Virus record (IMG/VR): IMGVR_UViG_3300037297_000388
Location: 2,177 to 66,176 of that record
DNA: 64,000 nucleotides
From: a virus
Reading direction: 5' to 3' (one strand)
In this document: piece by piece, positions 3,200-63,291 of the stretch
How the letters are laid out: each line of letters begins with the position of its first letter
Numbering within the stretch: position 1 is the first letter of the stretch
Program-made: the position numbers and the translations under genes
The notes under the pieces: generated by a model
What the model was told of the DNA's origin: nothing
Database searches by the model: none
The model's input: the letters and a program-made list of their open reading frames with translations, nothing else

Positions 3200-3991
3200 A
3201 TGTGTAACCCAGCGAGTTTTATCATCACGCGTGAGCGCGCTCTGTTTTGCGAGACAGACAGCCACGAGGATATTATCAAAAAACACAAACTAGTGGACTC
3301 ACGCATGGAGCCTGCATTTGTGCGAGTGGAGTTGATCCCGCCGGATGGTGACTATTCATCGCCGCCAGAGAAGTGGAAGTTGGAAACAGATCAAGGCGCT
3401 GTGCCAGATTGGTACAACCCAAAATGGGCTCAACAGATGTGCCTACTAGAGATGCCGAAGTGGTGGTCAGGGCGCTTTGCGACTTCGTCTGGAGTGCTTT
3501 ATTACGAGGGTCGCAAAATAAATAAGATACCGAATAATATGACTCATATCGGCGGCTCCCTGGACCTGCGCGGCACGCAGGTGAGCGACCTTGGGCAGCT
3601 GCAGTCCGTCGGCGGCTCCCTGGACCTGCGCGGCACGCAGGTGAGCGACCTTGGGCAGTTGCAGTCCGCCGGCGGCTCCCTGGACCTGCGCGGCACGCAG
3701 GTGAGCGACCTCGGGCAGTTGCAGTCCGTCGGCGGCTCCCTGTACCTGCGCGGCACGCAGGTGAGCGACCTCGGGCAGTTGCAGTCCGTCGGCGGCTCCC
3801 TGGACCTGCGCGGCACGCAGGTGAGCGACCTTGGGCAGCTGCAGTCCGTCGGCGGCTCCCTGGACCTGCGCGGCACGCAGGTGAGCGACCTTGGGCAGTT
3901 GCAGTCCGTCGGCGGCTACTTGTACCTGCGCGGCACGCAGGTGAGCATCGCAGATCTGCCTGAAGGTTTGAAGCCACGGGATGTGTTATAA
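3200..3991 (+). CDS. Leucine-rich repeat protein
   Basis: About 6.6 copies of 20-aa GGSLDLRGTQVSDLGQLQSV (LxLxxTxV LRR pattern). Confidence 0.85.
   Translation: MCNPASFIITRERALFCETDSHEDIIKKHKLVDSRMEPAFVRVELIPPDGDYSSPPEKWKLETDQGAVPDWYNPKWAQQMCLLEMPKWWSGRFATSSGVLYYEGRKINKIPNNMTHIGGSLDLRGTQVSDLGQLQSVGGSLDLRGTQVSDLGQLQSAGGSLDLRGTQVSDLGQLQSVGGSLYLRGTQVSDLGQLQSVGGSLDLRGTQVSDLGQLQSVGGSLDLRGTQVSDLGQLQSVGGYLYLRGTQVSIADLPEGLKPRDVL
3551..3946 (+). repeat. 60-bp coding tandem repeat, 6 full copies plus a partial copy
   Basis: Units start at 3551, 3611, 3671, 3731, 3791, 3851 and 3911. Confidence 0.97.
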
Positions 3992-4759: not shown

Positions 4760-5878
4760 TTGGGCGTCAAAAAATATACGGCGAGGGACGGAAAAGCATG
4801 GTGGATGGCTGACATCCGTGTGACCATGAGAGATGGTCGCGAGAAGCGGGTCAGGAAGAAGAAGATACCGACGAAAGAGATGGCCCTCCTGTACGAGTCC
4901 AAGGTGAAGACGGCAGCATTTGAGGGGCGCTACTTTGAGACGGGAAGCAATTTGACGGTCGAACAGGTCTGGAAAATCTACGAGCCCATCACGCGGCGTG
5001 ATAACGATTCATGGCGGGACGATGTCGGACGGGCCAAGCATTTGACCCGGTTGCTGGGGAAGCGGAAGGTCGAGCAGCTCGCGCTGACACATGTTGAGCA
5101 GTACCGCAGCAGGCGGATGGATGAAGTGAGCAACCGGACGAAGCGGGTGCCGGCGATCGGGACCATCAACCGGGAGGTTGGGCTTTTGAAGCGCATGATC
5201 AACTATGCGGTTCGGCGCGGTGATCTACGGATGAATCCCATCGCGCTAGTCAGGGCGCTCCACGAGTCCAATATCCGGCAGGTTGTGATCAGCGAGCGAA
5301 GGTTCGAAGTGCTGCTCGAGAAGGCGGACCCACCATTGCGCCCGATCATCCTGTTGGCGTATGACTGCGGGATGCGGAAGATGGAGATTCTGATGTTGAG
5401 GTGGAGTCAGCTGAACCTTCACACCGGTGTGGCCTATCTCGCCCCATGGGACACGAAGACGGATGAGTCTCGGGAGATCTATTTGACGGACAGGGCCATC
5501 CGGGAGCTCCAAGCGCTGAAGGGCATCGATGATGGGTTGTTGTCAATCAACGGCTACGCCATCATCAATCCGCAGACGGGCGAGCCCTGGGTGGACATCA
5601 AGAAGATGTTCAAGCGGGCGTGTGAGGCAGCTGGGCTCGTTTACGGCAGGGACAATGGGGTGATCTTCCATGACCTACGTCGGAGCTTTGTTACCAACGC
5701 GAGGAAGAGGGGAATCCCGGAATCGGTGGTGATGGCGATGTCTGGGCACCGGACGCGGAATGTGTTTGACCGCTACAATATCGTGGACAACGCGGATCTG
5801 AAAAACGCCGTCAGGCGGATGGAGCGGGCGCGGCGGGAAGAACTCCGGGAGCAAAAAAGGAGGCGGCCGGAGGTGTGA
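4760..5878 (+). CDS. int: Tyrosine integrase
   Basis: CGMRKMEI (catalytic Arg), KT, FHDLRRSF (HxxR), SGHRTRNVFDRY (H/Y); AAGGAGG RBS. Confidence 0.95.
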   Translation: MGVKKYTARDGKAWWMADIRVTMRDGREKRVRKKKIPTKEMALLYESKVKTAAFEGRYFETGSNLTVEQVWKIYEPITRRDNDSWRDDVGRAKHLTRLLGKRKVEQLALTHVEQYRSRRMDEVSNRTKRVPAIGTINREVGLLKRMINYAVRRGDLRMNPIALVRALHESNIRQVVISERRFEVLLEKADPPLRPIILLAYDCGMRKMEILMLRWSQLNLHTGVAYLAPWDTKTDESREIYLTDRAIRELQALKGIDDGLLSINGYAIINPQTGEPWVDIKKMFKRACEAAGLVYGRDNGVIFHDLRRSFVTNARKRGIPESVVMAMSGHRTRNVFDRYNIVDNADLKNAVRRMERARREELREQKRRRPEV

Positions 5879-6196: not shown

Positions 6197-6289
6197 AGCT
6201 GCTCACCACCGCGGCGCCGAGGATAGCAGCTGCTCACCACCGCGGCGCCGAGGATAGCAGCCGCTCATCTCCGCGGCGCAGAGTTATGG
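6197..6289 (+). repeat. 31-bp tandem repeat (2 perfect copies plus 1 degenerate)
   Basis: AGCTGCTCACCACCGCGGCGCCGAGGATAGC at 6197 and 6228; degenerate copy at 6259. Confidence 0.9.
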
Positions 6290-6420: not shown

Positions 6421-6600
6421 ATGGACTTCGCAGACATTGGACATTGGAATTTTGATGAGGATGCCAGGGATCAACTCATGAGACTCCTGAGGAAGGACCT
6501 GGCAGGGATGGTTGGCGTTGGCGCGATCAGCCAAGATGATGCTGACAACTGGCTAAATCTCCCATCGGATTTTGATGATCTTTTCGGCGTTGAGGAGTAA
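6421..6600 (+). CDS. Small acidic protein (59 aa; not in ORF track)
   Basis: GGAGGT RBS; MDFADIGHWNFDEDARDQ...DFDDLFGVEE; 15 D/E versus 4 K/R; stop overlaps the next ATG. Confidence 0.7.
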   Translation: MDFADIGHWNFDEDARDQLMRLLRKDLAGMVGVGAISQDDADNWLNLPSDFDDLFGVEE

Positions 6601-7505
6601 TGCAACGGACAAAGATAGAATACCTAACCCACACCTGGAACCCGCTGGCTATGCGGTGTTCTCCGGTGTCGGATGGGTGTAAGAATTGCTGGCACCTTAG
6701 AATGGCGAATCGGATGGCAGGAAACTTTATATTGAAACCAGAAGCTCGACGAGCATATGCCGGTAATGGGCCATGGCTGAACACCGAGGAACTCTCAGCA
6801 CCATTCAAGCTGAAGAAGCCCTCCGTCATTGGCGTCCAGTTTATGGGGGATCTTTTTCACATGTCGGTTTCAGATGAGCAGATTGCAGCCGCCTATGGGG
6901 CGATGATGGCATGCCCACAGCACACTTTCATCATTTTGACGAAGCGGGCCGAAAGGATGTTCCATTGGTATCGCAACACGCAAAACATAGGCGGTTATCC
7001 GGTTGGTGATCCTCATCCTGAAGCGTTGAATTGCGCCTGGCAGCTGCTTCAATTGGCTGAACCAGAAGGAGACGGGCCGATCCATTGTAAATACGGACCT
7101 GCCCCTGATGCACCGTGGCCGCCCCGTAACGTAATCCCCGGCGTCAGCGTCGAGGATCAGAGAACCGCCGAAGAGCGATGGCGTTGGCTGTCGCGATGCC
7201 CGGCGGATGTTAGATGTGTATCGGTAGAGCCGATGCTCGGGCCGGTCGACCTATGCAATCAATGGGGACTCTATGAATTAGACGGTGGCGGCTATTCTAC
7301 AAAGGTATCTAGCCGATGGGATCGGTCACCTGACTGGGTCATCTGCGGCGCAGAAACGGGACCAAGAAAACGGCCATTTAAGAACGAATGGGCGCTTGAC
7401 TTGCGCGATCAATGCCGGGCAGCTGGCGTGCCGTTCTTTTTCAAACAGGATGGTGATGGCAACAAAACACTCTGCGGTGTCGAGTACCACGAGTGGCCGA
7501 AATAA
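6600..7505 (+). CDS. DUF5131 / phage Gp37-Gp68 family protein
   Basis: TKIEYLTHTWNP, CSPVSDGCKNCW (CxxxxxxCxxC), MGDLFH, ILTKRAER, GVSVEDQ, VSVEPMLGP, WVICGAETG, VPFFFKQ. Confidence 0.9.
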   Translation: MQRTKIEYLTHTWNPLAMRCSPVSDGCKNCWHLRMANRMAGNFILKPEARRAYAGNGPWLNTEELSAPFKLKKPSVIGVQFMGDLFHMSVSDEQIAAAYGAMMACPQHTFIILTKRAERMFHWYRNTQNIGGYPVGDPHPEALNCAWQLLQLAEPEGDGPIHCKYGPAPDAPWPPRNVIPGVSVEDQRTAEERWRWLSRCPADVRCVSVEPMLGPVDLCNQWGLYELDGGGYSTKVSSRWDRSPDWVICGAETGPRKRPFKNEWALDLRDQCRAAGVPFFFKQDGDGNKTLCGVEYHEWPK

Positions 7506-7519
7506 ACACACAGGAGGTA

Positions 7520-8031
<512 letters not shown>

Positions 8032-8060
8032 GAAAAGTCCGCCCGGAAGATGCGAGGAAT

Positions 8061-8206
8061 ACGTCGCCCAGGGGCACTGGGAGACGGAAAACGGACGTGG
8101 AGAGGGCGTCAGCCTGGGGTGTTGTCCCCAGCAATCCTCTGTGAAGCGTCAAGGCGGCTGCCATGCCTGTTGAACAGACAGACATCGGTTTAAGTCCGCT
8201 CTGCCA
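8061..8206 (+). mobile_element. tnpB-derived omegaRNA-like scaffold, copy 2
   Basis: 146-bp near-identity to 646-791. Confidence 0.75.
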
Positions 8207-8225
8207 GCCAAAGGCGTAATCAATC

Positions 8226-8645
8226 ATGGATATGAAACAGAAGCGCATGCGTCAAATCAACAAGCTGATCAGCGTGATTGCTTCATGTGGGAGAAAATTC
8301 TACTCCTACAATGGCACGGTCGCAGAATTCAAAATCTGGGGGAATGGTAGGCTTTATTTCGTCGAGCCATATGGGCGGAATTTACTGCCGTGTTACTCGA
8401 AGCCGGACAGCCATAGATGGAATACCCACCGGTGGGGTAGATTTGGCGGCGGCGGGACGCTCAAGGCCATGACAAAGTCCTTCGCTGCATACATTCTCAC
8501 CGGTGCTACGGTGCCAGCCCATCATTTTGGTCCATGGCCGGAGTGGTATTGTGGCAACCCAAATGATCTATGGGGGTACGGAGACGAAGCCATGGAGAAG
8601 GTCCGTTCTGCGGCGGTTTTGGTATCAACAGCGAGGCAAGGATGA
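8226..8645 (+). CDS. Hypothetical protein
   Basis: 139-aa ORF whose stop overlaps the csf2 start (ATGA). Confidence 0.65.
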   Translation: MDMKQKRMRQINKLISVIASCGRKFYSYNGTVAEFKIWGNGRLYFVEPYGRNLLPCYSKPDSHRWNTHRWGRFGGGGTLKAMTKSFAAYILTGATVPAHHFGPWPEWYCGNPNDLWGYGDEAMEKVRSAAVLVSTARQG

Positions 8646-9865
8646 GTAACGAAACGTTGATAAAGACGGTTACCGTAATCCGTCAAATCTATTTCAATTC
8701 GAGCATGAAAACAAGGCGCAAATATGCTGACTTCTTCACTGACCGGTTGAAGGCCGCATGCACTGAGCCGTCGTTGCTGGCCGCGGTAAACCGCCTGGGT
8801 GAGTCCGTCGACTGTTCTTTTGGATCATTGGATTCAACCACGGTGTCGGAGTTCATTCGTTGCGCAGGGGGCATCTCTTCCGCCGGCGTATTCGACTGGG
8901 TTCGGCAGTATCCGGCTATAATCACATCTCTATGTCTCCTGAAGAAGGACGATCTGGCCGAGACTGTCGCAACCATTGACATCTCCGAATCAAGAAGGTC
9001 AGGAACAGCGGTGAAGGCCCCAGCGGCGGAGATAGCCATAAACGTGAAGTGCCTTTCTCCCCTCGCCCACGGTGCTGATACCAAGTCTGGCAACTGTACT
9101 CTATTTCGTCGGATGCATGTGCTGAGCACTACCGGAGACACCCTATCTCTACCATTCTATGCTGGAAACGCAGTTCGTGGGCAAATGCGCGATTTGCTCG
9201 CCGATGATTTTATCCGGCGACTGGGGATGAGGCCAAGGCGTGACAATCCCCCTGTCTCTTTATGGTTCTTCCATGCGCTTTATGCCGGTGGTGCCCTTGA
9301 GGAGAACAGCGCGGCGGAGAAGGGACTGGGGAAGATCCTTGGGAAGAATGGCGCAGCTCGAGCGGAGGGATTCTATCAGGTTCGGAACACCCTTCCGCCG
9401 CTGTCTCTATTCGGTGCAGCCCTCGGGCGCCGGATTTTGAATGGTAGGTTTCAGTGTCACGATCTCCGCCCGGTATGTTATGAATGGGGCAACGGAGATG
9501 TACCGGTGGCGGATCTGTTTGAGTGGACATTTCTGACACGACGCGAAGATCATGAGGCTCACGATGACAATTCCAGCATGATCGCGAATACCGAAGTAAT
9601 GAAGGCCGGAGTAGATCTCACGGGCGGATTCAATATCGAATCCAACGCGACAGAGATTGAGCGCTCTGCATTGGGGCACGGGCTCGATCTTCTTGCAGCC
9701 AGGGGGATGCTCGGCGCCGAGAATCGACGAGGACTTGGCGCCGTAGAAATATCGGCGGAGAATGTCCCATCGCCGGTTACCTATCTTGATTTTATGGAGC
9801 AATCAAAGGCCGACATCCTGGCGTTTTTGTTGGAGATCGGGGCCATCAACGCTGAGGAAGCTTGA
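8642..9865 (+). CDS. csf2: Type IV Cas7 (Csf2) with N-terminal Cas11-like helical domain
   Basis: CLSPLAHGADTKSGNCTLFRR, LPFYAGNAVRGQMRDLLA, LYAGGAL, PPLSLFG, FLTRRED and Gly-rich GMLGAENRRGLG loop are Csf2-like; ~110-aa helical N-terminal extension. Confidence 0.9.
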   Translation: MSNETLIKTVTVIRQIYFNSSMKTRRKYADFFTDRLKAACTEPSLLAAVNRLGESVDCSFGSLDSTTVSEFIRCAGGISSAGVFDWVRQYPAIITSLCLLKKDDLAETVATIDISESRRSGTAVKAPAAEIAINVKCLSPLAHGADTKSGNCTLFRRMHVLSTTGDTLSLPFYAGNAVRGQMRDLLADDFIRRLGMRPRRDNPPVSLWFFHALYAGGALEENSAAEKGLGKILGKNGAARAEGFYQVRNTLPPLSLFGAALGRRILNGRFQCHDLRPVCYEWGNGDVPVADLFEWTFLTRREDHEAHDDNSSMIANTEVMKAGVDLTGGFNIESNATEIERSALGHGLDLLAARGMLGAENRRGLGAVEISAENVPSPVTYLDFMEQSKADILAFLLEIGAINAEEA

Positions 9866-10521
9866 TGCATCCGATTCAGTTGATAGCCCCGTGTATATCA
9901 GAAGAGGACTCGGGGTGCGATTTTGAGACGGTGGAGCATGTTTGCGCGGTCACTGGAGCGCGCGCCCCGTGTGTCCCTCGAAAGGCCCTTCTGAAGAAGG
10001 GATTCACCAACGAAGCGATTCTGAAGGCACCATTATCAGATTGGGTTTCGGTGGATGCCTATCGGGTACTTCGATTTCGTCCAGAGCGGTCCTGGTCATG
10101 GATCTGTGATGGAACGGATCTTGTCTTGCTCGACCGGATCGGCGTCAGGGAGATTGTGATTGAAGAGAAGTACCCTGCAGTCTGGTCTGGGTATGTGACG
10201 ACGAGCTACAAGAAGCACGGATCACTATGGGCTCGCGTCAACGCAAACGGAGTCCGGTTCTGGCGTTTCGAAGCTCTCGATGTTGACTGCTCCGACCATG
10301 GCTACCTAATGAGGGTATGGGAGCGGCTGAACGAGGAACTGAGACGCGGGTTCAGCCGGCCGACATTGGAGTCCCTTGCCTGTCCGCCTTTTTTTCTAAA
10401 AAAGGTGGGTGTGGACAAATGGCTTGAGCTCGAGCGGTGGGCTCGACCGATTGCCGCGTCTCCGCTCTATCGCTTTCTGTGCTATCTGCTTCCAAGTCAG
10501 AAGGAACTGGCCGATGAATGA
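9865..10521 (+). CDS. csf1: Type IV Csf1 (Cas8-like)
   Basis: CAVTG...KKGFTNEAILKAPLSDWVSVDAY...RSWSWIC resembles the Csf1 N-terminal pattern; coupled to csf2. Confidence 0.72.
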   Translation: MHPIQLIAPCISEEDSGCDFETVEHVCAVTGARAPCVPRKALLKKGFTNEAILKAPLSDWVSVDAYRVLRFRPERSWSWICDGTDLVLLDRIGVREIVIEEKYPAVWSGYVTTSYKKHGSLWARVNANGVRFWRFEALDVDCSDHGYLMRVWERLNEELRRGFSRPTLESLACPPFFLKKVGVDKWLELERWARPIAASPLYRFLCYLLPSQKELADE

Positions 10522-11263
10522 TACCCATATTCTCGGATGGCGGGTTCACGCAAAGACGAGAGCGTTCAAGCAGAAGGTTCGTGAGTCGATAGAAATTACT
10601 ACTGAGGCGCTTTTTGATTCCGATGTTAGGTTTTGCATCATGTGGAGCGGTGGGAAAGACTCTACGGCGATGACGCACATCGTGAAGTCGCTCCTTCCGA
10701 CCTGCCCTATTGTTTCCCAGTTTGATGACTGTGACTGGCCAGAGAAGTCGCCCTACATGGAAAGGGTGGCTGCAGAGCAGGGGTGGACCATCCATCGTGT
10801 GGAACCAGAATTTAGCGTGTGGGAAAGGACCAAGATGTTTCAGATTGGCGACGAGGACCTCTGTAAGAAATCCCACCCATTAACGAGGGAGGCCTTCCTC
10901 GATGTGCTCCATGAGGAACAGGAGAAACTTGGCTGCAGTGGTGCCTTTATTGGTCTACGCTCTCAGGAAAGCCCTGGCCGCCGAAAAAACTTCCAGGCGC
11001 GTGGGCACATATACCAGCTCAACAACGGAAAATGGCACTGTTGCCCGCTGAGCAGCTGGACATCACAGGACGTCTTCGCCTATCTTTCTGCTGTGGATAT
11101 TGAAATAAACCCATGCTATTTTAAAAACGCCATATGGGAACCGGAGGAGATCCGCCTTTCATGGGCATTGCCAACAATTTGGTGGAAGGGTCAGGATATT
11201 GAACATTTACGACGTTACTATCCAGAACAATTTCGCAGACTAAGAGAAAGGGGAACACAATGA
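10514..11263 (+). CDS. cysH: CysH-like PAPS-reductase-family protein (type IV-B associated)
   Basis: WSGGKDSTAM PP-loop, FIGLRSQESPGR, CPLSSWTSQDVFAY. Confidence 0.88.
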   Translation: MNDTHILGWRVHAKTRAFKQKVRESIEITTEALFDSDVRFCIMWSGGKDSTAMTHIVKSLLPTCPIVSQFDDCDWPEKSPYMERVAAEQGWTIHRVEPEFSVWERTKMFQIGDEDLCKKSHPLTREAFLDVLHEEQEKLGCSGAFIGLRSQESPGRRKNFQARGHIYQLNNGKWHCCPLSSWTSQDVFAYLSAVDIEINPCYFKNAIWEPEEIRLSWALPTIWWKGQDIEHLRRYYPEQFRRLRERGTQ

Positions 11264-11841
11264 GTAACACCGTGAGCAACACAGTATTGATTGGGGAGCT
11301 TACTTTGGAGCGCGCAAAAATGGTACTACAGGGAAAGAAGGCTGATATTGTCTACTCAGACCCACCCTGGGGACCTGGTAATCTCCGCTACTGGAGGACG
11401 ATGAACAATGAAGGAAATGAAGTCAACTGGAAAAAATTTCTTCATTTATTCTGCCAGGTGGTGAAGGATAGCACAAATCCGACATCGGAGATTTTCGTTG
11501 AGATGGGGACCCGCTGGATCGACGAGTTGGCGGCTGAGATGGCGTCCGTCGGTATTCAGGAGACGCAGCGGTTTGAGTGTTCATATCGGGGGGGCGCGAA
11601 GAGGTATCGAAACTTTCTATGGCACGCGGGGACACATATAGTACCAACTGAACTCAATGGTGGGGTGAAGATGACGATGGGGATTCTTTCCGCCGTTGCG
11701 AAAGATGGTGCCATCGTTTTTGATCCATGCTGTGGCAAGGGAATGAGCGCAAAATGCGCAATTAAAAACAATATGAAATTTGTAGGAATTGAACTAAATG
11801 CCAAACGCGCGGCGATGACGCAGAAAATATTAACCAAATGA
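11260..11841 (+). CDS. Small N6A/N4C-type methyltransferase
   Basis: YSDPPW (motif IV) followed by VFDPCCGKG (motif I) and GIELN. Confidence 0.8.
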   Translation: MSNTVSNTVLIGELTLERAKMVLQGKKADIVYSDPPWGPGNLRYWRTMNNEGNEVNWKKFLHLFCQVVKDSTNPTSEIFVEMGTRWIDELAAEMASVGIQETQRFECSYRGGAKRYRNFLWHAGTHIVPTELNGGVKMTMGILSAVAKDGAIVFDPCCGKGMSAKCAIKNNMKFVGIELNAKRAAMTQKILTK

Positions 11842-12167
11842 GGCTTGAGGAGGTAGTTCGGGAGGCCAGAAAAGAATATCAATCAAGTTTGAAGCCCAAA
11901 ACTGCGCCGACTCCAATATATTACAGTGGAAAGATTGTTGGAGTTTATCATCCTCACAGTTGTAAATATGGGCGTCGAATTGGGCCAATTTTTGTGCTTC
12001 CAGAATACCGCGGACGCGGGATTGCCCTTGGTATATATAACAGTATCAGCGGAGAACTTGTTGCATGTGTAAGAGACGATAATATTGCTGGTATCCGACT
12101 TCATGAGGCGGCTGGGTTTATACGGTTCCGTCGATATCAATACGGATGGTGGATGGTTAGAAAATGA
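11838..12167 (+). CDS. GNAT-family acetyltransferase
   Basis: IFVLPEYRGRGIA acetyl-CoA motif; NIAGIRLHEAAGF. Confidence 0.8.
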   Translation: MRLEEVVREARKEYQSSLKPKTAPTPIYYSGKIVGVYHPHSCKYGRRIGPIFVLPEYRGRGIALGIYNSISGELVACVRDDNIAGIRLHEAAGFIRFRRYQYGWWMVRK

Positions 12168-13024
12168 TTTTCCTTGGCGTTTCAATTGAAGAGAAAATTG
12201 ACGGTGTTAGAAGATACTGCACAAGACACAAAATAAAAAAAACGTTTATGATTTCTCCAGAGAAGTTCGTTTTTCAACCAGATGATGCCGAAACAATAGA
12301 ATACAGTGACGCCATAAAATACAAATACTACTACCGCCTCCTGCAAGAGATTGACCACAACACTCTGATTGTAATCAACGAGTGTCTCCGCACCCAAAAT
12401 AGATACGACCTGACATACAACTGCATCCGCAATTACCTGAATCAAACACATCACCAGATCATCTTTCAAAACCTTCCACTCATCGATACTTTTAATGACT
12501 TCATGATCCTATTTGATTTCGACACGAGGAGCCGCTGGAAACGTGAATCGTTCCGACGTGAGTTGCTGGCTGAGTGCAAAATAGTAAACCGAATCCGACC
12601 GATCACAATTTCACCGATAATAACCAAGGCGAACACTCAGACGCATGCGATCTATCAGAAGAAAAAAAGGAAACTCATTGATGAAATAGGGCTGAAGGAT
12701 CCCCATACTATACCGCGTAACCTCTATCTAATCGGTGGGAAAACCCGCCAGAGGTTGGTCCGCGCCGACGTGAACTATGTTGGGAGGAATAACCGGTTGA
12801 AGATTCCGACGTTGAAAACCTATCGAGAGAAGTTATTTCCACCGGATAACACTGTCTTTGAACTTCCCCATAATTTCATAGACTTCTCTGATTTTATAAC
12901 GCTGTCTGGCCAGGTCGACTTCGAAGTACTGGTGACAGACCTCAAGGTGGATCAGTGGTATCTGGATAGGTACCAAAAGTGGGCAGAGAGGATTGAAAAT
13001 GCTCGTTCAGTCCTACAGCAATAA
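12164..13024 (+). CDS. Hypothetical protein, possibly a degenerate SF2/RecA-like fold
   Basis: TLIVINEC resembles a degenerate Walker B; no Walker A seen; coupled on both sides. Confidence 0.6.
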   Translation: MIFLGVSIEEKIDGVRRYCTRHKIKKTFMISPEKFVFQPDDAETIEYSDAIKYKYYYRLLQEIDHNTLIVINECLRTQNRYDLTYNCIRNYLNQTHHQIIFQNLPLIDTFNDFMILFDFDTRSRWKRESFRRELLAECKIVNRIRPITISPIITKANTQTHAIYQKKKRKLIDEIGLKDPHTIPRNLYLIGGKTRQRLVRADVNYVGRNNRLKIPTLKTYREKLFPPDNTVFELPHNFIDFSDFITLSGQVDFEVLVTDLKVDQWYLDRYQKWAERIENARSVLQQ

Positions 13025-14126
13025 GACCGTCCTTGATGCCGCCCGGGAGCGGATGGCTTTCATCTTTGATGAATTCGAGACCATCATCGTGTCCATCAGC
13101 GGTGGAAAAGACTCAACAGTGTTGGCTTATCTGGCCCTCCATGAGGCGTCCTCGAGGGGGAGAAAAGTTGGGCTTTATTTTCTAGACGAAGAGGTGGTGT
13201 ACCAGAGCACAGTTGATCAGGTCGACTACCTGATGGACCTCTTTCCGGACACCGTGACGAAGATCTGGTTTCAGATTGAGTGTTGCCTCACGAACTCCAC
13301 GTCTGTGTCTGAGGGACAGCTCATCTGTTGGGAGGCAGGCAAGCACGAGATCTGGATGCGTCACAAAAAGCCGTTCGCCATTCAGCACCGAATGTGGCCA
13401 GCGGAAGAACAGACGGTTCGCGACAAAAACAAAGGGTTTGGGTTCTACGATGTCATCGACAACTTCGAGCGGTGCTACCACAGCGCCGCATTTTTGGTAG
13501 GGCTGAGGGCCGCGGGGGAGTCCCCAAACAGGTGGCGCGCAGTGGTCAAGAACCCCGTTCTGATCGGCGGGAAGAAGGTATATTGGGGCACGAAGAAGGG
13601 CAACAACGTGGCCCTTTATCCACTGTATGACTGGAATTTCCATGATGTCTGGAAGTATATCCATGACGCCGGCATCCGGTACTCGAAGATCTATGATATG
13701 CAGTTCAAGAAGGGCTATCCAATCACCCAAATGAGGGTGTCCTCGCTGATCCATGAACGGGCTTTCAAGAGCATCTGTGATCTTCCAGAGTTTGAGCCGA
13801 AGACCTTTGACCAACTGAGCAAACGCATCAAGGGCATCTCACTTGCTCAGGAAACTGGAAAGAACGCAAAGCTGTTTGCATGCAGAAAGCTCCCAAAGAA
13901 TTTCAAGTCATGGATCACCTACCGTGATTTTCTCATTTCCACCCATCAGGATCAGGAGAGACTTTCGATATTTCAAAAACGCTTCAGGAAGCACCTAAAC
14001 AACGAATATGTGGCGAGGCAGCAATGCCGGCAGCTTATTTTAAACGATTATGAAAACAACCTCCCCGTGGACAATAAACCAGACCCACGGGAAGATCTCA
14101 TCAAATACTACGACGAGGTTTTGTGA
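12999..14126 (+). CDS. ibrA: IbrA/YbdN-like PAPS-reductase-family protein (DUF3440-type C-terminus)
   Basis: TVLDAARERMAFIFDEF, SISGGKDSTVL, FLDEE, VGLRAAGESPNR, YPLYDWNFHDVWKY, MRVSSLIHE. Confidence 0.85.
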   Translation: MLVQSYSNKTVLDAARERMAFIFDEFETIIVSISGGKDSTVLAYLALHEASSRGRKVGLYFLDEEVVYQSTVDQVDYLMDLFPDTVTKIWFQIECCLTNSTSVSEGQLICWEAGKHEIWMRHKKPFAIQHRMWPAEEQTVRDKNKGFGFYDVIDNFERCYHSAAFLVGLRAAGESPNRWRAVVKNPVLIGGKKVYWGTKKGNNVALYPLYDWNFHDVWKYIHDAGIRYSKIYDMQFKKGYPITQMRVSSLIHERAFKSICDLPEFEPKTFDQLSKRIKGISLAQETGKNAKLFACRKLPKNFKSWITYRDFLISTHQDQERLSIFQKRFRKHLNNEYVARQQCRQLILNDYENNLPVDNKPDPREDLIKYYDEVL

Positions 14127-14728
14127 TGGTACATCGCGTCGACACAATAGAGCAGTTTCTCGAGATTAGAGACAAGTTGGAGCACGTCTACATCAACTCG
14201 AAGACGCGAGGTAAAGTACTCGTCCCGTGTTGCAACACGATTCTGGCCTCGACAAAACTCATCATAGAAAATCAGTATAACCCAAACCACGTACCAGCCG
14301 AGAAGATGGCGCTATTGAGTCAGTCGATTCTCGACAACGGATTTTGTTTCCCAGTGGTGGTGATCTACGATGATGAGTCCGAGCTCTTTGTCGTGATAGA
14401 TGGCTTTCATCGGACGATTATCGGCGGGGATGGCTGGTTGGAGTTCGACTACATCCCGCTGGTGGTACTTGACCATGACATCAAGAAGAGAATGGCGGCA
14501 ACGGTGCAGTTCAATAAGGCCCGCGGTGTTCACCAAGTAGATCTTGATGCGGATGTCATCCGGGCGCTCATCGAACAAGGGATGTCCGAGGATGAAATCT
14601 GCGCCCACCTTGGGATCGATGAGGATACGGTCCATCGATACAAGCAGCTCACCGGGATTGCTGAGCTCTTCAAGAACGCGGACTATTCCATGAGCTGGGA
14701 GATGAAGGATGTGAAGGATGGCTCTTAG
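14126..14728 (+). CDS. ibrB: IbrB/YbdM-like ParB/Srx-domain protein
   Basis: NQYNPNHV, SILDNGFCFPVV, VIDGFHR, ATVQFNKARGVH, C-terminal HTH. Confidence 0.88.
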   Translation: MVHRVDTIEQFLEIRDKLEHVYINSKTRGKVLVPCCNTILASTKLIIENQYNPNHVPAEKMALLSQSILDNGFCFPVVVIYDDESELFVVIDGFHRTIIGGDGWLEFDYIPLVVLDHDIKKRMAATVQFNKARGVHQVDLDADVIRALIEQGMSEDEICAHLGIDEDTVHRYKQLTGIAELFKNADYSMSWEMKDVKDGS

Positions 14729-15380
14729 ACCACTTAAAATAACTTTCCACATGGATGGCACTGGTGCCTTCTACGACCCGTCCGAACCAATGCACCTGGA
14801 TGGACTATTGGCGTGGGCGTTGTGTTTATACCAGACGTCAGGGGAGCCACCGGCGGCCGATGAAAAGCCGTTTGAACCACGGCTGCCACTCGGAAAATGG
14901 CATATTGGGGGCCAATGGGGCTGGACCGCCAGCGCCATCCTACCGGTGGGGGATAAACAGTGGGGGATGCAGCGCTTCATCAAGCGTTTTCGTGAGAATC
15001 GAATTGAGATCACAAAGGGATCACCGAATATGCAGATGAGCACCTATCGGAAATACTGTGTACCGATGCCGCTGGTGCTTTCTCATCAATTTGTAGCCTA
15101 TGCCCTGGGCCCAAGGGGCCGCGTTCACCAGATCCTGAAGAAAAACATCAAATTTCTCGGCAGAAAACGGGCCGCTGGCAAAGGTCGGATCGTGGACATT
15201 ACCACCGAAGAGATAGCCGATGATTTCTCACTTGTGAAGGATGGCCGAGCGAATCGGTATCTTCCAAAAGATGGAGCTCAGAGGCAAGTCAGAACACGCC
15301 CGCCCTACTGGAATATGTGGGGGCGCGTTCCTTGCTGTGAGGTGGGAGAGGCGTATCAACTGGATACAATTAATGGTTGA
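14718..15380 (+). CDS. csf3: Type IV Cas5 (Csf3)
   Basis: PLKITF, HLDGLLAWA, LPL..W...WGWTAS, FLGRKRAAGKGRI Gly loop, RPPYW. Confidence 0.88.
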   Translation: MALRPLKITFHMDGTGAFYDPSEPMHLDGLLAWALCLYQTSGEPPAADEKPFEPRLPLGKWHIGGQWGWTASAILPVGDKQWGMQRFIKRFRENRIEITKGSPNMQMSTYRKYCVPMPLVLSHQFVAYALGPRGRVHQILKKNIKFLGRKRAAGKGRIVDITTEEIADDFSLVKDGRANRYLPKDGAQRQVRTRPPYWNMWGRVPCCEVGEAYQLDTING

Positions 15381-15439: not shown

Positions 15440-15850
15440 TCATTTACCCCTTGAAATTAAATTTTCAAGGTGGGCGTTGCCAGCCCAGAACTCGGAGACG
15501 ACGAGGTCGATCGAGAATGCGATGTGCTCTGATGTCGAGACCTGCTTGGCGAGCTCGAGCCATCGGTCTTGGGTGATGTCCCATTTCTCGGCGTACTCTG
15601 GCCCGTCCGCCATTGAGGCGCCGTGCCAGGTGGGGGACTGGACGAGCAGCCACGAGCCGTTCAGGACATCGCAGGCGGCCAATATCTCATTGGGTGTCCA
15701 CCCGGCCGCCTGCAGGGTAGACAGGGACTGGGTGGCCCGCTGGAACCTTTCACGGACTGCATGCTCGATGTAGTCGGAGATGTTGCCGACGCGATCGAGC
15801 AGATTTATGACATCAGGGGCGAGGGTAAGTTGTTTTTTGATTTTCTTCAT
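15440..15850 (-). CDS. Hypothetical protein with possible N-terminal ribbon-helix-helix
   Basis: KKQLTLAPDVINLLDRVGNISDYIEHAV; AAAGGAGA RBS. Confidence 0.6.
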   Translation of the reverse strand: MKKIKKQLTLAPDVINLLDRVGNISDYIEHAVRERFQRATQSLSTLQAAGWTPNEILAACDVLNGSWLLVQSPTWHGASMADGPEYAEKWDITQDRWLELAKQVSTSEHIAFSIDLVVSEFWAGNAHLENLISRGK

Positions 15851-21625: not shown

Positions 21626-21858
21626 ATGTACAGATTGCGCGAGAAAATTGGCTTCGATACCACCCGCGACGCGGTGGTTGAGGGGTGCAACGCGGCAATC
21701 AACCTCAACAAACACGTCGCCCAGGGGTACTGGGAGACGGAAAACGGACGTGGAGAGGGCGTAAGTCTGTGGGCTGGCCCCAGCAATCCTCAGTGAAGCG
21801 TCAAGGCGGCTGCCATGACTGTTAAAAAAACAGACATCGGTTTAAGTCCGCTCTGCCA
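21626..21858 (+). mobile_element. tnpB C-terminal remnant plus omegaRNA-like scaffold, copy 3
   Basis: Mini-ORF 21626-21796 contains NAAINLNKHVAQGYWETENGRGEGV; NAAINL is the TnpB RuvC-III pattern; core 21714-21858. Confidence 0.78.
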
Positions 21859-43740: not shown

Positions 43741-43921
43741 ATGACGCACCTGTTGCACAAGATCCGGATCAACGAACACGTCGCCCAGGGGCACTGGGAG
43801 ACGCAAAACGGACGTGGAGAGGGCGTAAGTCTGTGGGCTGGCCCCAGCAATCCTCAGTGAAGCGTCAAGGCGGCTGCCATGGCTGTTAAAAAACAGACAT
43901 CGGTTCAAGTCCGCTATGCCA
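43741..43921 (+). mobile_element. tnpB-derived element / omegaRNA-like scaffold, copy 4
   Basis: Mini-ORF 43741-43860 MTHLLHKIRINEHVAQGHWETQNGRGEGV; core 43778-43921. Confidence 0.75.
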
Positions 43922-50599: not shown

Positions 50600-52279
50600 G
50601 TGATGCGGCATCGACTCGACAGTGATACAGGATCAGAAACCTCCAAGGAGGCAAAACTTCAACTTCTTATTCAGGCGACTATGCGCAGGGCCGAGGAGGC
50701 CCGAAACGACATATCCAAGTTCTACGAATTCGTCATCCGAGAAGAAAAAACTCGCGCGAAAATTCAAACGACGCCGCATCAACATGTCATGTTTTCATTC
50801 GCGGAGTATCACCCATACTGCGTGATACGGATACCAGTTGGATGCGGGAAGACATATTTTATCGGGGCGAGAGCCCTCTTCCTCCTCGGTAAAAACAGAA
50901 CCCGGCGTGGCGCGATTATGGCGTCCGCCCAGGGGCAGGCAAAAAAAGTGCTCCTGTTCGTGTCGGATTACATTGAGGATCCGACCCTCAACCAGCCTCT
51001 GGCCCTGGTATTCCCGGAGCTACGGCCGACCACGAAAGCGAAGGAACCATGGACGTCCGAGGCGATCACTGTCGACCGGCCGGCCGGCATCAGGGATCCG
51101 TCTCTGGTTGCGGCAGGATTGGACACGAAAATCTCTGGGTCTCGTCTCTCATATGGTGTCGGCGACGATATTGTCGACGATATAAACAGCCGCAACCCAT
51201 CAGTCAGGAGAGAGACGACGAGGATGTTCAACGCTCGTCTGATGAACCGCATGGATCCGGCTGACTCGAGCGTCACTGTCACCAACACACCGTTCGACCG
51301 AGAGGACTTGACGTATTACCTCGAGAATGAAGAGCGGTGGCCAACCATCACGATGGATATCTACGGGTATATCCGGTTTTCAAACGCCGAGGCATCCTGG
51401 ATGGCCATGGCCATGGACACCATGCTGAGGCCGAGCACGACACGAACAGGAGGCGCCCACGACTGGTACCGGCTCAGGGCACATGATCCCGACCCGGAGG
51501 AGGAAACACCACTTTGGCCAGAGCGTTATTCGCTCAAGTGGATTCAGGAGAAGAGATACGGGAAAGACGGAAAAGGCGGGATGCTTCCCATTGAGTTCGC
51601 GCGGGCATTCCTTTGCGATCCAATGAGCGATGATGCTACTCGGTGCCAGCGAGCTTGGATTGAGCGATGCAAACTCAAGGGGATGCGCGAAGACTTCGGG
51701 TTCCCGCTCGAGTACAATGGTCCGAATCCGACATTTACCGGTGTCGACCTTGGCGTCGGTAAAGATAGAGCGCATGATCGCTCGACATTGTTCACCTTCG
51801 AGCTTCTTCCAAGTAGCGAGCGAAGGATCCTTGATATTGAGAGTGGGCGGTGGCCAGGAAAGACCATCATCCAAAAGATCATCCATAAGACCGAATGCTT
51901 CGACAGTTCTATCGCTGTTGAAAACAATAACGCGCAAGACTACATCATTCAGTTTGCGGTTGAAGAAAAGAAAGATCTCCAGATCACTGCTCACACGACG
52001 GGAAAGGTGAATAAACACGATACGAATTGGGGAGTGGAGAGCATCTTCAACGAGGTCCATAATGGGGCATGGATTATCCCGTGTGACAGGAACGGCAAGT
52101 GCCATCCCGAGGTACAGAAATGGATCGACGATATGGTGTTCTACATTCCCAATACTCATACCGGCGACCATCTGATGGCCTGCTGGATCGGCAGAGAGGC
52201 ATCGCGAAAGAAGAAGTCGTCCGGGCCGAAGCCGACAACCGGAAAGAAGCGCCAGATGTCCTCTACGGGTGCATTTTGA
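50600..52279 (+). CDS. terL: Terminase large subunit
   Basis: IRIPVGCGKT Walker A, GVGDDIVD Walker B, TNTP, FARAFLCDP, GVDLGVG (RNase H-like), VENN, GDHLMACW. Confidence 0.92.
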   Translation: MMRHRLDSDTGSETSKEAKLQLLIQATMRRAEEARNDISKFYEFVIREEKTRAKIQTTPHQHVMFSFAEYHPYCVIRIPVGCGKTYFIGARALFLLGKNRTRRGAIMASAQGQAKKVLLFVSDYIEDPTLNQPLALVFPELRPTTKAKEPWTSEAITVDRPAGIRDPSLVAAGLDTKISGSRLSYGVGDDIVDDINSRNPSVRRETTRMFNARLMNRMDPADSSVTVTNTPFDREDLTYYLENEERWPTITMDIYGYIRFSNAEASWMAMAMDTMLRPSTTRTGGAHDWYRLRAHDPDPEEETPLWPERYSLKWIQEKRYGKDGKGGMLPIEFARAFLCDPMSDDATRCQRAWIERCKLKGMREDFGFPLEYNGPNPTFTGVDLGVGKDRAHDRSTLFTFELLPSSERRILDIESGRWPGKTIIQKIIHKTECFDSSIAVENNNAQDYIIQFAVEEKKDLQITAHTTGKVNKHDTNWGVESIFNEVHNGAWIIPCDRNGKCHPEVQKWIDDMVFYIPNTHTGDHLMACWIGREASRKKKSSGPKPTTGKKRQMSSTGAF

Positions 52280-61349: not shown

Positions 61350-61762
61350 ATTTTCTATATTTTAGCGCGACACGGGGACACGCTGTGTCGAGGTTTGGCA
61401 CACAACAATTTATCGGCGCGAAGCGCGTGCTTGGTGTCGGTATCGTCGTAGACGAGTCAGTGATCGTAAGGATCCCCGAGGTCGAATATATCCAGTACCT
61501 CAAGTCATATAGTCGGGCCATCTCGGATGGCTCCTTGAAGAAACGCACCGCGTCAGAATACGAGGAGTACCAGGCAAAGAAATCCGGTGGTGTGGGTGCG
61601 GCTGGGGATTCAGACGGAGATTCAGACGGAGATTCAGACGGAGATTCAGACGGAAATATCGATGTGGACACGAACACCGATATCGATGTCGCAGACAACA
61701 CACGCAAATCGGGAAAATCAAACGCAAAATCCGATAGGCGCAAGACCGGAGGGACAAAATGA
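61346..61762 (+). CDS. Hypothetical protein with DSDG repeats
   Basis: ATGA-coupled on both sides. Confidence 0.65.
   Translation: MNFLYFSATRGHAVSRFGTQQFIGAKRVLGVGIVVDESVIVRIPEVEYIQYLKSYSRAISDGSLKKRTASEYEEYQAKKSGGVGAAGDSDGDSDGDSDGDSDGNIDVDTNTDIDVADNTRKSGKSNAKSDRRKTGGTK
61607..61654 (+). repeat. 12-bp tandem repeat x4 (GATTCAGACGGA)
   Basis: Direct observation; encodes (DSDG)4. Confidence 0.95.
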
Positions 61763-63291
61763 CGATACCTACCGCGGTCAGCCCAGGTAATCTGGTACCA
61801 GGACTTTATCTGTCAGTGAACACCATGGCCGGAGTCGCCAGCCCAGGCGGGTCATCAATGGCGGTCGCTCTCGTGGCCCCCAAGAGCTCGGCAGGCGATC
61901 TGACGGTGGACACCGAGGTGAGAACGGGCGCCGGGGAGGCCTCGGCATCGGTTGCGTTCGGACCCGGGACCGTCGGACACCAGACTGCGAAACAGATCTG
62001 GACCAAATACCCGGCGTCGGAGATCGATTTCATTGCGCCGACGGCCGGGGCTGGGTCCGCGACCCTCGACCTGACGTTCGCGAATTCACCCACTTCGAAC
62101 ATCACGGTTTATCTGGATATTCACGGGGTGGAATTTGAGGTGGCCTGGCTGGCCGGAGAATCCGCCGATGACATCAGGGACACGGTTATTTCAGCCATCA
62201 ATGAGCGCACCTCACAGCTCATGGTGGCGGCATCGACAGGCGGCACCGGCATCGTGACGATCACGGCCAAGATTGCCGGCAACGTCGGCAACGATATCCT
62301 GATTTATGCCTCTCTATCGGAACAGTCGGGAACTGAGACCATCAACAGCGGAACTTCCGTATCGAGCGCGTTGTCCGGTGGTTCGAGCGACCCGGATTTG
62401 ACAAACGCACTGGCAGCGTTGTCGGCGAAGGAATACGACATCATCCTGCCATGCCTGAGCAATACGGATGTGGCGAATACGGCGTCGACGAACAACCTCA
62501 AGCGGATCGTGAACCACATCTCTGCCTACAACAGCGGTCTGAACGCGAAGCTGCAGCAGTTCGTGGTGGGATACACCGGAACGGTTGCGCTGGCCGTTGC
62601 GACATCGTCGCACTCGAATAGTGCGAACAACGTCGACTTCGGCGAGATCATTCTGTGTATCGCAGGGCGAGATCTGCCGTCAGTGCTTGCCGGGAGAGAG
62701 GTGGCCGATTGGCTGGTTCGATACTCATCGGATCCCTCCGCGAACAGGATCGGTCAGATATTCGATGGCATCGTCGGTGCCAAGGACAAGCTGACAAATA
62801 CTCCTACGGATGCTGAGCTTCAGACGCTAATTGGAAACGGCGTGTCGCCTATTTCCTACACCAAACAACTATCTCCGAAGTTGGTGCGTCCTGTCACGAC
62901 GCACAGCCAGGATGATGCTGGCGGAGCAGACCGGCGGGTTCTCGATGTACAGAATGTCGTCGCGGAATATGTGGTGGCCCGCGACATCCGGGACACCCTG
63001 CCATCTGCGTTCCCTCAGGCGAAAATATCCGAAGATCTCGCGGAGGGTGAGGAGCCGGTGCCCGGCGTGACGGAGGTCCGCGACGTGAAAGCGTGGCTTG
63101 GGGACCGCTTGATGGCCTGGGCAGACGACGGTGTCCTCAATAAAGCGCGGGTGAGGACTGTCATTTCTGACGGGTCGTTGATTGTCCAGGTGAACGGCAC
63201 GGACGCAACACAGGTCGACATCGTGTTGCCGAAGAAGATCGTCCAGCCCTGGGCGAAGACAAGCTTGGTTTCACAGCGTGAGCCGAGCTAA
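61759..63291 (+). CDS. Contractile tail sheath protein (Mu gpL-like)
   Basis: VPGLY, VTITAK..GNVGNDI, G..DPD...ALA, GVSP, RPVTT...D. Confidence 0.9.
   Translation: MTIPTAVSPGNLVPGLYLSVNTMAGVASPGGSSMAVALVAPKSSAGDLTVDTEVRTGAGEASASVAFGPGTVGHQTAKQIWTKYPASEIDFIAPTAGAGSATLDLTFANSPTSNITVYLDIHGVEFEVAWLAGESADDIRDTVISAINERTSQLMVAASTGGTGIVTITAKIAGNVGNDILIYASLSEQSGTETINSGTSVSSALSGGSSDPDLTNALAALSAKEYDIILPCLSNTDVANTASTNNLKRIVNHISAYNSGLNAKLQQFVVGYTGTVALAVATSSHSNSANNVDFGEIILCIAGRDLPSVLAGREVADWLVRYSSDPSANRIGQIFDGIVGAKDKLTNTPTDAELQTLIGNGVSPISYTKQLSPKLVRPVTTHSQDDAGGADRRVLDVQNVVAEYVVARDIRDTLPSAFPQAKISEDLAEGEEPVPGVTEVRDVKAWLGDRLMAWADDGVLNKARVRTVISDGSLIVQVNGTDATQVDIVLPKKIVQPWAKTSLVSQREPS

Follow-up and report, generated by a model that had tools for sequence, protein, structure and literature searches.

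A type IV-B Cas effector operon without an array, merged with a mobile enzyme cassette that also occurs without Cas genes

Type IV-B CRISPR-Cas loci have been found on plasmids, in prophages, in some phages and in one archaeal virus family (Bathyarchaeia viruses), and they carry a nearly invariant cysH-like gene. An ADP-ribosyltransferase or an N6-methyltransferase is occasionally mentioned among their neighbours, and the reference complex is that of Mycobacterium sp. JS623 (PDB 7JHY). Reviews describe the function of type IV-B as unknown, with a key that probably lies in the CysH-like partner, and the 2025 CRISPR classification added nothing on the accessory genes. The IbrA/IbrB family, for its part, is described in papers only as co-activators of prophage genes, and we found no paper linking DUF3440, IbrA/IbrB or a 3′-phosphoadenosine-5′-phosphosulfate (PAPS) reductase with ParB to type IV systems, type IV-B included; the phage CRISPR system with IbrA/B reported in PMC4490671 is of type I-E and unrelated. 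Here, we analyze an operon located at positions 8642-15380 of a 64,000-nt stretch of viral DNA (hereafter, the window), which corresponds to positions 2,177 to 66,176 of the IMG/VR record IMGVR_UViG_3300037297_000388. We show that this operon merges an array-less type IV-B Cas effector set with a mobile cassette that can be found in the absence of Cas genes as well.

The operon consists of nine genes on the plus strand, and both the listing of open reading frames (ORFs) and the reading of the junctions show that every junction overlaps. Numbered from g1 to g9, these genes encode a Cas11-like/Csf2 fusion, Csf1, a CysH-like protein, a methyltransferase, a GNAT, an SNF2-like protein, an IbrA-like protein, an IbrB-like protein and Csf3. 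The overlaps are of the ATGA kind at g3/g4, g4/g5 and g5/g6, of the TGATG type at g1/g2 and g7/g8, and span 8-32 nt at g2/g3, g6/g7 and g8/g9. An earlier model-made reading of the letters (the sequence-only reading) had described nine translationally coupled genes in this order, with csf3 closing the operon. Both statements are correct, since all nine ORFs are present with overlapping junctions, the Csf3 gene (14718-15380) comes last and the following gene (15440-15850) is convergent. Only the start of the coupled run has to be moved: it begins at 8226, with a tenth gene (8226-8645, plus strand) that overlaps the first one by ATGA. This gene is YoqU-like (phrog_14313, E-value 3.7e-16; YoqU clusters in an Atlas search, template modelling (TM) score 0.77). 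It has no homologue in any of the first 70 loci collected from csf2, and in L094 (L numbers label the related loci) the 139-aa gene that occupies its position is unrelated to it. Because it is not conserved in related loci, we treat it as co-transcribed with the operon but outside the system.

As in described type IV-B loci, the operon combines Csf1, Csf2, Csf3 and a CysH-like protein, with a probable Cas11-like domain, on a mobile carrier, and lacks an array, cas6, dinG and adaptation genes. Unlike them, its Cas11 appears fused to Csf2, and genes for a methyltransferase, a GNAT, an SNF2-like protein, IbrA and IbrB are lodged between cysH and csf3. The sequence-only reading had noticed that the array, cas1, cas2, cas6 and dinG are missing, and this holds across the whole 66,213-bp record, estimated to be 84% complete: neither a CRISPR array nor spaced repeats are present, no tRNA and no match to Rfam was found, and cas1, cas6 and dinG are all absent (no match to PF01867, PF10040 or PF06733). 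For cas2, a single sub-threshold match to PF09827 (13.7 bits over 23 positions, window 6566-6634, minus strand) falls inside a 100-aa minus-strand ORF and is probably due to chance.

The first gene (8642-9865) encodes a type IV Csf2 (Cas7) preceded by a Cas11-like domain (residues 1 to about 125; 8642 to about 9016). The Csf2 part (residues 131-396) matches the PADLOC typeIV_Cas7 profile Csf2_0_IV (E 1.6e-44), and the family profile retrieves Cas7c (11fs_C, E 8e-12) and Csf2 (7jhy, E 1e-8) from the PDB; against TIGR03115, the score is only 27 bits for a cut-off of 130 bits. The AlphaFold2 (AF2) model has a predicted local distance difference test score (pLDDT) of 85 and its top Foldseek matches are type IV Csf2 chains (8s37_E, E 9e-9; 7jhy_a, target-normalized TM score 0.70). 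In this model the 128 N-terminal residues form a helical bundle, and this extra helical domain is conserved among more than 346 full-length homologues. Its profile matches the solved Cas11c chain 11fs_N (E 7e-4), the domain alone gives a weak match to PADLOC Cas11_0_IV (E 0.0037), and hhalign pairs it, along the same stretch, with the stand-alone Cas11 of relatives that lack the fusion (E 0.002, probability 14%). In those relatives, a distinct 125-aa gene, clearly a Cas11 (E 3.6e-20), precedes a short csf2 (272 aa), and the operon has no separate Cas11 gene. Searched in Atlas, the first 125 residues returned generic helical bundles only. A Cas11-Csf2 fusion is thus probable, on weak but concordant evidence.

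The other Cas components are a Csf1 and a Csf3. Csf1, the type IV large-subunit-like protein (start at 9862-9865, end at 10521, plus strand), matches PADLOC Csf1_0_IV over its full length (E 3e-4). All 19 aligned family members match this profile as well (best E 9.7e-34), and its place right after csf2 is conserved in related loci; the family profile found no match in the PDB. Csf3, the type IV Cas5, matches TIGR03116 (cas5_csf3, E 6.8e-20, below the curated cut-off of 140 bits) and PADLOC Csf3_0_IV (E 6.6e-30). Hence, the Cas7 fold that had been proposed for 8642-9865 is borne out by the AF2 model and the fold search, and the Cas5 identity of 14718-15380 by sequence profiles.

Between csf1 and csf3 lie six genes, all on the plus strand. 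The CysH-like PP-loop ATP pyrophosphatase (10514-11263; PAPS_reduct, E 2.5e-17) carries an SGGKDS PP-loop conserved in at least 85% of 54 relatives and gives weak matches to BrxP and SspD. It is followed by a beta-class DNA methyltransferase of the N6A/N4C type (193 aa, 11260-11841; N6_N4_Mtase, E 3e-8; phrog_67 and phrog_498), whose DPPW and motif I are shared by at least 85% of the aligned relatives, and by a short GNAT acyltransferase (11838-12167; Acetyltransf_1, E 6e-5, above the curated cut-off). The IbrA-like PP-loop enzyme (12993-14126) contains PAPS_reduct and DUF3440 (Pfam E 1.5e-10 and 1.2e-5; phrog_2302, E 1.5e-77), with an SGGKDS PP-loop conserved in at least 85% of 33 relatives. 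The IbrB-like ParB/Srx-domain protein (14123-14728; phrog_2159, E 3e-43; ParB_N and HTH_23) has a C-terminal helix-turn-helix (HTH) and a DGFHR motif that at least 85% of the aligned relatives retain. The profile phrog_498 matches both g4 (the methyltransferase) and g8 (the IbrB-like protein), which corresponds to ParB-methyltransferase fusions. This IbrA/IbrB pair has the same domain architectures as the pairs of prophages and phages and the same arrangement as adjacent overlapping genes; it differs from them in its location inside a Cas operon and in having at its side a degenerate SNF2-like protein.

This last protein (286 aa, 12164-13024) has no match in Pfam, PHROG or PADLOC, and we found no relative of it in a protein search of cultured phages, although its family comprises at least 746 homologues. 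Its AF2 model (pLDDT 90.8) displays two RecA-like lobes, and a Foldseek search of this model against the PDB and the AlphaFold database (AFDB) retrieved the ATPase cores of ISWI, Chd1 and SNF2h (E 1e-8 to 1e-9, query-normalized TM score 0.55-0.66). The family consensus has no Walker A motif (GxGK[ST]) and reads NEC where DExx would sit. The label "degenerate helicase-like" given by the sequence-only reading therefore fits, the fold being SNF2-type by model and the ATPase motifs being gone; the CysH-like, methyltransferase, GNAT, IbrA-like and IbrB-like labels are each matched by a significant Pfam or PHROG hit.

The genes of the cassette are found together well beyond this operon. We surveyed them from the SNF2-like protein, a starting point that is unbiased towards csf. 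In all the viral loci that are long enough (21/21), the core made of (methyltransferase), SNF2-like, IbrA, IbrB and (methyltransferase) is kept; 10 of these 21 loci are linked to csf genes, with CysH, 8 to an SNF2 helicase, and 3 to neither. The metagenome survey yielded 80 loci, 52 of them extending far enough to be judged: 28 are csf-linked, 20 SNF2-linked, 4 have neither partner and none has both. Since the surveyed loci are mutually related and some contigs are present in both collections, these counts describe a pattern and not independent events. In the csf-less version (8 viral loci), a protein of about 250 aa and an active SNF2 helicase of about 470 aa stand directly upstream of the cassette. 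The helicase contains SNF2-rel_dom and Helicase_C (PF00176 and PF00271), with PADLOC matches to ZorD, DpdE and DrmD. This helicase and its companion are missing wherever Cas genes accompany the cassette (0 of the 48 partnered metagenome loci have both partners), the CysH-like gene is present only in the csf-linked version and never with SNF2, and the degenerate SNF2-like protein is kept in both. In a tree of IbrA (32 rows), the csf or SNF2 label must have changed three times or more inside the clade carrying the SNF2-like protein. The arrangement of the window, with csf3 closing the operon after the cassette, is found again in L126, L130 and L132, and the GNAT, which is only sometimes part of the cassette, is again present there in L069, L070, L100, L106, L110, L134 and L162. 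The companion of about 250 aa (L081:7763-8623, L082:5722-6600, L076:2970-4136 and others), always located beside the active helicase, has no Pfam or PADLOC match.

A complementary view is given by the relatives collected from Csf2, i.e., 70 loci (62 viral contigs and 8 genomes) annotated with profiles built iteratively from the window genes. The commonest order, csf2-csf1-cysH-csf3, characterizes about 28 distinct loci that lack the cassette. The slot beside csf1 and csf3 varies, and can be filled by CysH, by IbrA and IbrB, by both, or by a radical S-adenosylmethionine (SAM) enzyme. A small conserved protein, IbrA and IbrB fill it in L002, L007, L009, L010 and L011, without CysH, and the same small protein and IbrA in L049, where the contig ends after ibrA; likewise, IbrA and IbrB replace CysH between csf1 and csf3 in L094. 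CysH is found together with IbrA/IbrB, in differing orders, in L023, L042, L051 and L057; in L042, the 264-aa gene between ibrB and ibrA does not resemble the SNF2-like family. A B12-type radical SAM enzyme occupies the CysH slot in L012 (4182-5528), L040 (1905-3257), L044 (11897-13147), L056 (12214-13476) and L058, and follows csf3 in L053 (4848-6113) and L055 (11789-13018). Even the closest relatives of the window Csf2 differ in this slot, with IbrA/IbrB in L094 (59% identity), CysH in L095 (55%) and a radical SAM enzyme (7495-8874) between two csf3 copies in L096 (52%). The partner slot of type IV-B is thus interchangeable among CysH-like, IbrA/IbrB and radical SAM enzymes.

Several observations made on these loci deserve mention in their own right. 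The small protein (about 100 aa, no family match) that precedes IbrA in CysH-less IbrA/IbrB loci without the SNF2-like protein is encoded at L002:4700-5020, L007:11857-12144, L010:11905-12246 and L011:2173-2496. Two csf3 paralogues are present in one type IV-B operon in L037/L045 (order csf2-csf3-cysH-csf1-csf3). In L070, where Csf2 is a distant one, csf3 is separated from the methyltransferase cassette by the gene of a 624-aa protein containing a Cas6 domain (11685-13559; Pfam E 1.6e-5; PADLOC Cas6 E 5.5e-6). In Skermania phage SPI1 (KR011061.1; L093, 2807-6440), Orf40-44, annotated as hypothetical, match the csf1, cas11, csf2, csf3 and cysH-like profiles and are, by these matches, a type IV-B set that had gone unannotated in an isolated phage. 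The search for Csf2 in plasmids gave distant archaeal and actinobacterial IV-B-like matches only.

Do the Cas genes and the cassette form one system? The sequence-only reading held this to be probable, and had named as a possible refutation that the embedded genes might never co-occur with csf genes in other genomes. The gene-neighbourhood survey that it called for shows the opposite, the cassette repeatedly adjoining csf genes on many other contigs and in several gene orders, so that comparative genomics supports this reading. The mechanism that it gave as an example, a Cas7 filament that would scaffold or target the enzymes, is at this stage a hypothesis. Indeed, among 50,697 cultured phage records a single one has a relative of Csf2, and IbrA-like genes are present in 221, yet about half of the cassettes adjoin csf. 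Although each module can exist alone, their association is much too frequent to be due to chance. Moreover, the partner is either csf or SNF2 and never both, which argues for functional coupling and not for chance adjacency. It is very improbable, in our opinion, that two independent modules merely lie side by side in a variable accessory region without cooperating. Such independence would agree with the loci where Csf and CysH occur without the cassette (about 28), with those where the cassette occurs without csf (20-24), and with the GC content and third-codon-position GC content (GC3), which vary from gene to gene and suggest a mosaic origin. But it explains neither the frequency of csf beside cassettes that were collected regardless of csf, Csf2 being so rare, nor the insertion of the cassette inside the csf operon in several different orders, nor the loss of the SNF2 partner whenever csf is present.

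We propose that an ATP-dependent DNA-modification machine would mark the phage DNA, and that the Csf filament would stand in for the SNF2 motor as the component of this machine that engages DNA, a reading to which we give a probability of about 0.5. DNA is the expected substrate because csf alternates with a translocase of double-stranded (ds) DNA, because the cassette contains a ParB/Srx protein and a DNA-type methyltransferase, and because ParB-methyltransferase fusions exist. The strictness of the alternation suggests that the filament, loaded with some non-CRISPR RNA, would take over from the SNF2 motor the engaging and opening of dsDNA; type IV-A Csf complexes bind dsDNA, judging by PDB titles. 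The degenerate SNF2-like protein, because it is kept in both versions, would likely be the adaptor that links the Csf or the SNF2 module to the enzymes. The PP-loop enzymes would activate a DNA group by adenylation, after which a nucleophile other than an enzyme cysteine persulfide would replace this group, the ParB/Srx protein would provide NTP (nucleoside triphosphate)-dependent clamping or nicking of DNA, and the methyltransferase and the GNAT would add further marks (methylation and perhaps acylation). By marking its own DNA during replication, the phage would be spared by host or rival restriction systems.

Known DNA-modification systems resemble this set in part. In phosphorothioation (DndC/DndB), in BREX type 4 (BrxP) and in the 7-deazaguanine system Dpd (DpdA/DpdB), a ParB-superfamily NTPase similarly acts on DNA together with either a PP-loop ATP pyrophosphatase or a base-exchange enzyme, and these systems also include SNF2-type helicases. 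Compared with Dnd, BREX type 4 and Dpd, the operon has an RNA-binding Cas filament in place of the helicase. The chemistry would differ too. No cysteine of the window proteins is kept in more than 70% of the 33 IbrA-like or the 54 CysH-like relatives, in agreement with the published type IV-B CysH, which lacks the catalytic cysteine (PMC8175902), and the record contains no Aminotran_5 match above the cut-off that would indicate a cysteine desulfurase (a desulfurase of the host is possible). Both points argue against a Dnd-like sulfur insertion and set the operon apart from Dnd, Ssp and BREX type 4, to whose DndC, SspD and BrxP the matches are weak; phosphorothioation is thus disfavoured. Types IV-A and IV-D, in which a Csf complex works with the DinG or RecD helicase, are another point of comparison: the operon also pairs a Csf effector with a superfamily-1/2 helicase-like protein, and the best matches of its Csf2 model are IV-A Csf2 chains. 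However, its helicase-like protein is a 286-aa SNF2-like fold without Walker A, and neither a CRISPR RNA (crRNA) array nor Cas6 is present.

From the interchangeable partner slot and the alternation of csf with SNF2 comes a specific hypothesis on the function of type IV-B, in which the Csf complex would make DNA accessible to modification enzymes. If it holds, this operon would exemplify, in nature, a covalent modification of DNA guided by Cas proteins. What is observed is that the Cas module joins a defined cassette (methyltransferase, SNF2-like, IbrA and IbrB), in which Cas genes and an SNF2 dsDNA translocase are strict alternatives. A broader and more speculative idea, which we hold to be rather unlikely, is that Csf filaments are RNA-loaded recruiters of interchangeable DNA-modifying enzymes, functionally exchangeable with an SNF2 remodeller. 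In such an RNA-directed epigenetic writer, the filament, assembled on a non-CRISPR RNA, perhaps a transcript of the element itself, would pair with matching DNA and expose it to the CysH-like, IbrA/IbrB, radical SAM and methyltransferase enzymes.

Several points weigh against the replacement of the SNF2 motor by the Csf filament in the marking of phage DNA. The only type IV-B complex studied so far bound heterogeneous RNA and had no known DNA activity (PMC7937560). The mutual exclusivity of csf and SNF2 could reflect lineage history, the loci being non-independent samples. Sets of SNF2, methyltransferase and PP-loop proteins also characterize defence systems (DISARM, BREX type 4 and Dpd), so the role could be defence, and the operon adjoins the integrase, a typical site for the accessory genes of prophages.

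Two other explanations compete with this one. The cassette could serve prophage-borne defence or competition between mobile elements, marking the resident DNA as self, while the Csf filament and the ParB/Srx protein would interfere with unmarked incoming phages or plasmids, in a way resembling the modification-based BREX type 4, DISARM or Dpd. The SNF2 helicase of the csf-less version, which is most similar to ZorD, DpdE, DrmD and BrxH of defence systems, the weak resemblance of the CysH-like protein to BrxP and SspD, the proximity of the integrase and an attachment region, and the part played by type IV-A in the competition between mobile elements (PMC7038947) all make this plausible. Yet, apart from ParB/Srx, the operon has no dedicated nuclease or other effector, and many carriers are phage contigs without a recognizable lysogeny context. 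Furthermore, a 150-nt element that precedes the operon also precedes the DnaB, C5 methyltransferase and helicase operons, which suggests co-expression in the lytic cycle. We therefore keep defence as a minority hypothesis. Less probable still, and in our view unlikely, is an RNA substrate or a regulatory role, in which the PP-loop enzymes would modify the RNA of the filament or tRNA, or in which IbrA/IbrB would co-activate the transcription of prophage genes, as their family name suggests, while Csf would sequester RNA. Many PP-loop enzymes do modify RNA, weak matches to TtcA, TtuA, NcsA and TilS are present, the solved type IV-B complex binds RNA, and the HTH of IbrB would suit a regulator. 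On the other hand, the interchangeable partner is a dsDNA translocase, and the cassette always comes with a DNA-type methyltransferase and a ParB/Srx protein, which both point to DNA.

The 150-nt element is present in four copies (642-795, 8057-8210, 21711-21858 and 43774-43921), all on the plus strand and 90-92% identical. They lie just upstream of the gene blocks of the DnaB-like helicase, the csf operon, the C5 methyltransferase and a helicase, respectively. At its 3′ end, the element has a T-arm-like GGTTYAAGTCCG motif and then TGCCA. Its function may be that of a regulatory or leader sequence common to these blocks. The earlier idea of a structured RNA cargo was not adopted: the element has no Rfam or tRNA match, its fold z-score is −1.2, and the four copies show no covariation or compensatory changes. 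No exact match to it was found in viral contigs.

The provirus record (66,213 bp, most of it covered by the window) has an estimated completeness of 84%. Its PHROG matches identify the carrier as a temperate tailed phage: a DnaB-like helicase (748-2736), an integrase (4760-5878), a large terminase (50600-52279), a portal and a protease (present in the record), and a tail sheath (61759-63291). A DNA-level search of 8226-15380 against cultured phages gave no match. The operon comes shortly after the integrase and a few small regulator-like genes. Two tandem repeats are present in this part of the window, one of 60 nt (6.6 copies, 3549-3946) inside the ORF 3200-3991, and one of 31 nt (2.8 copies, 6197-6283) adjoining the putative attachment region.

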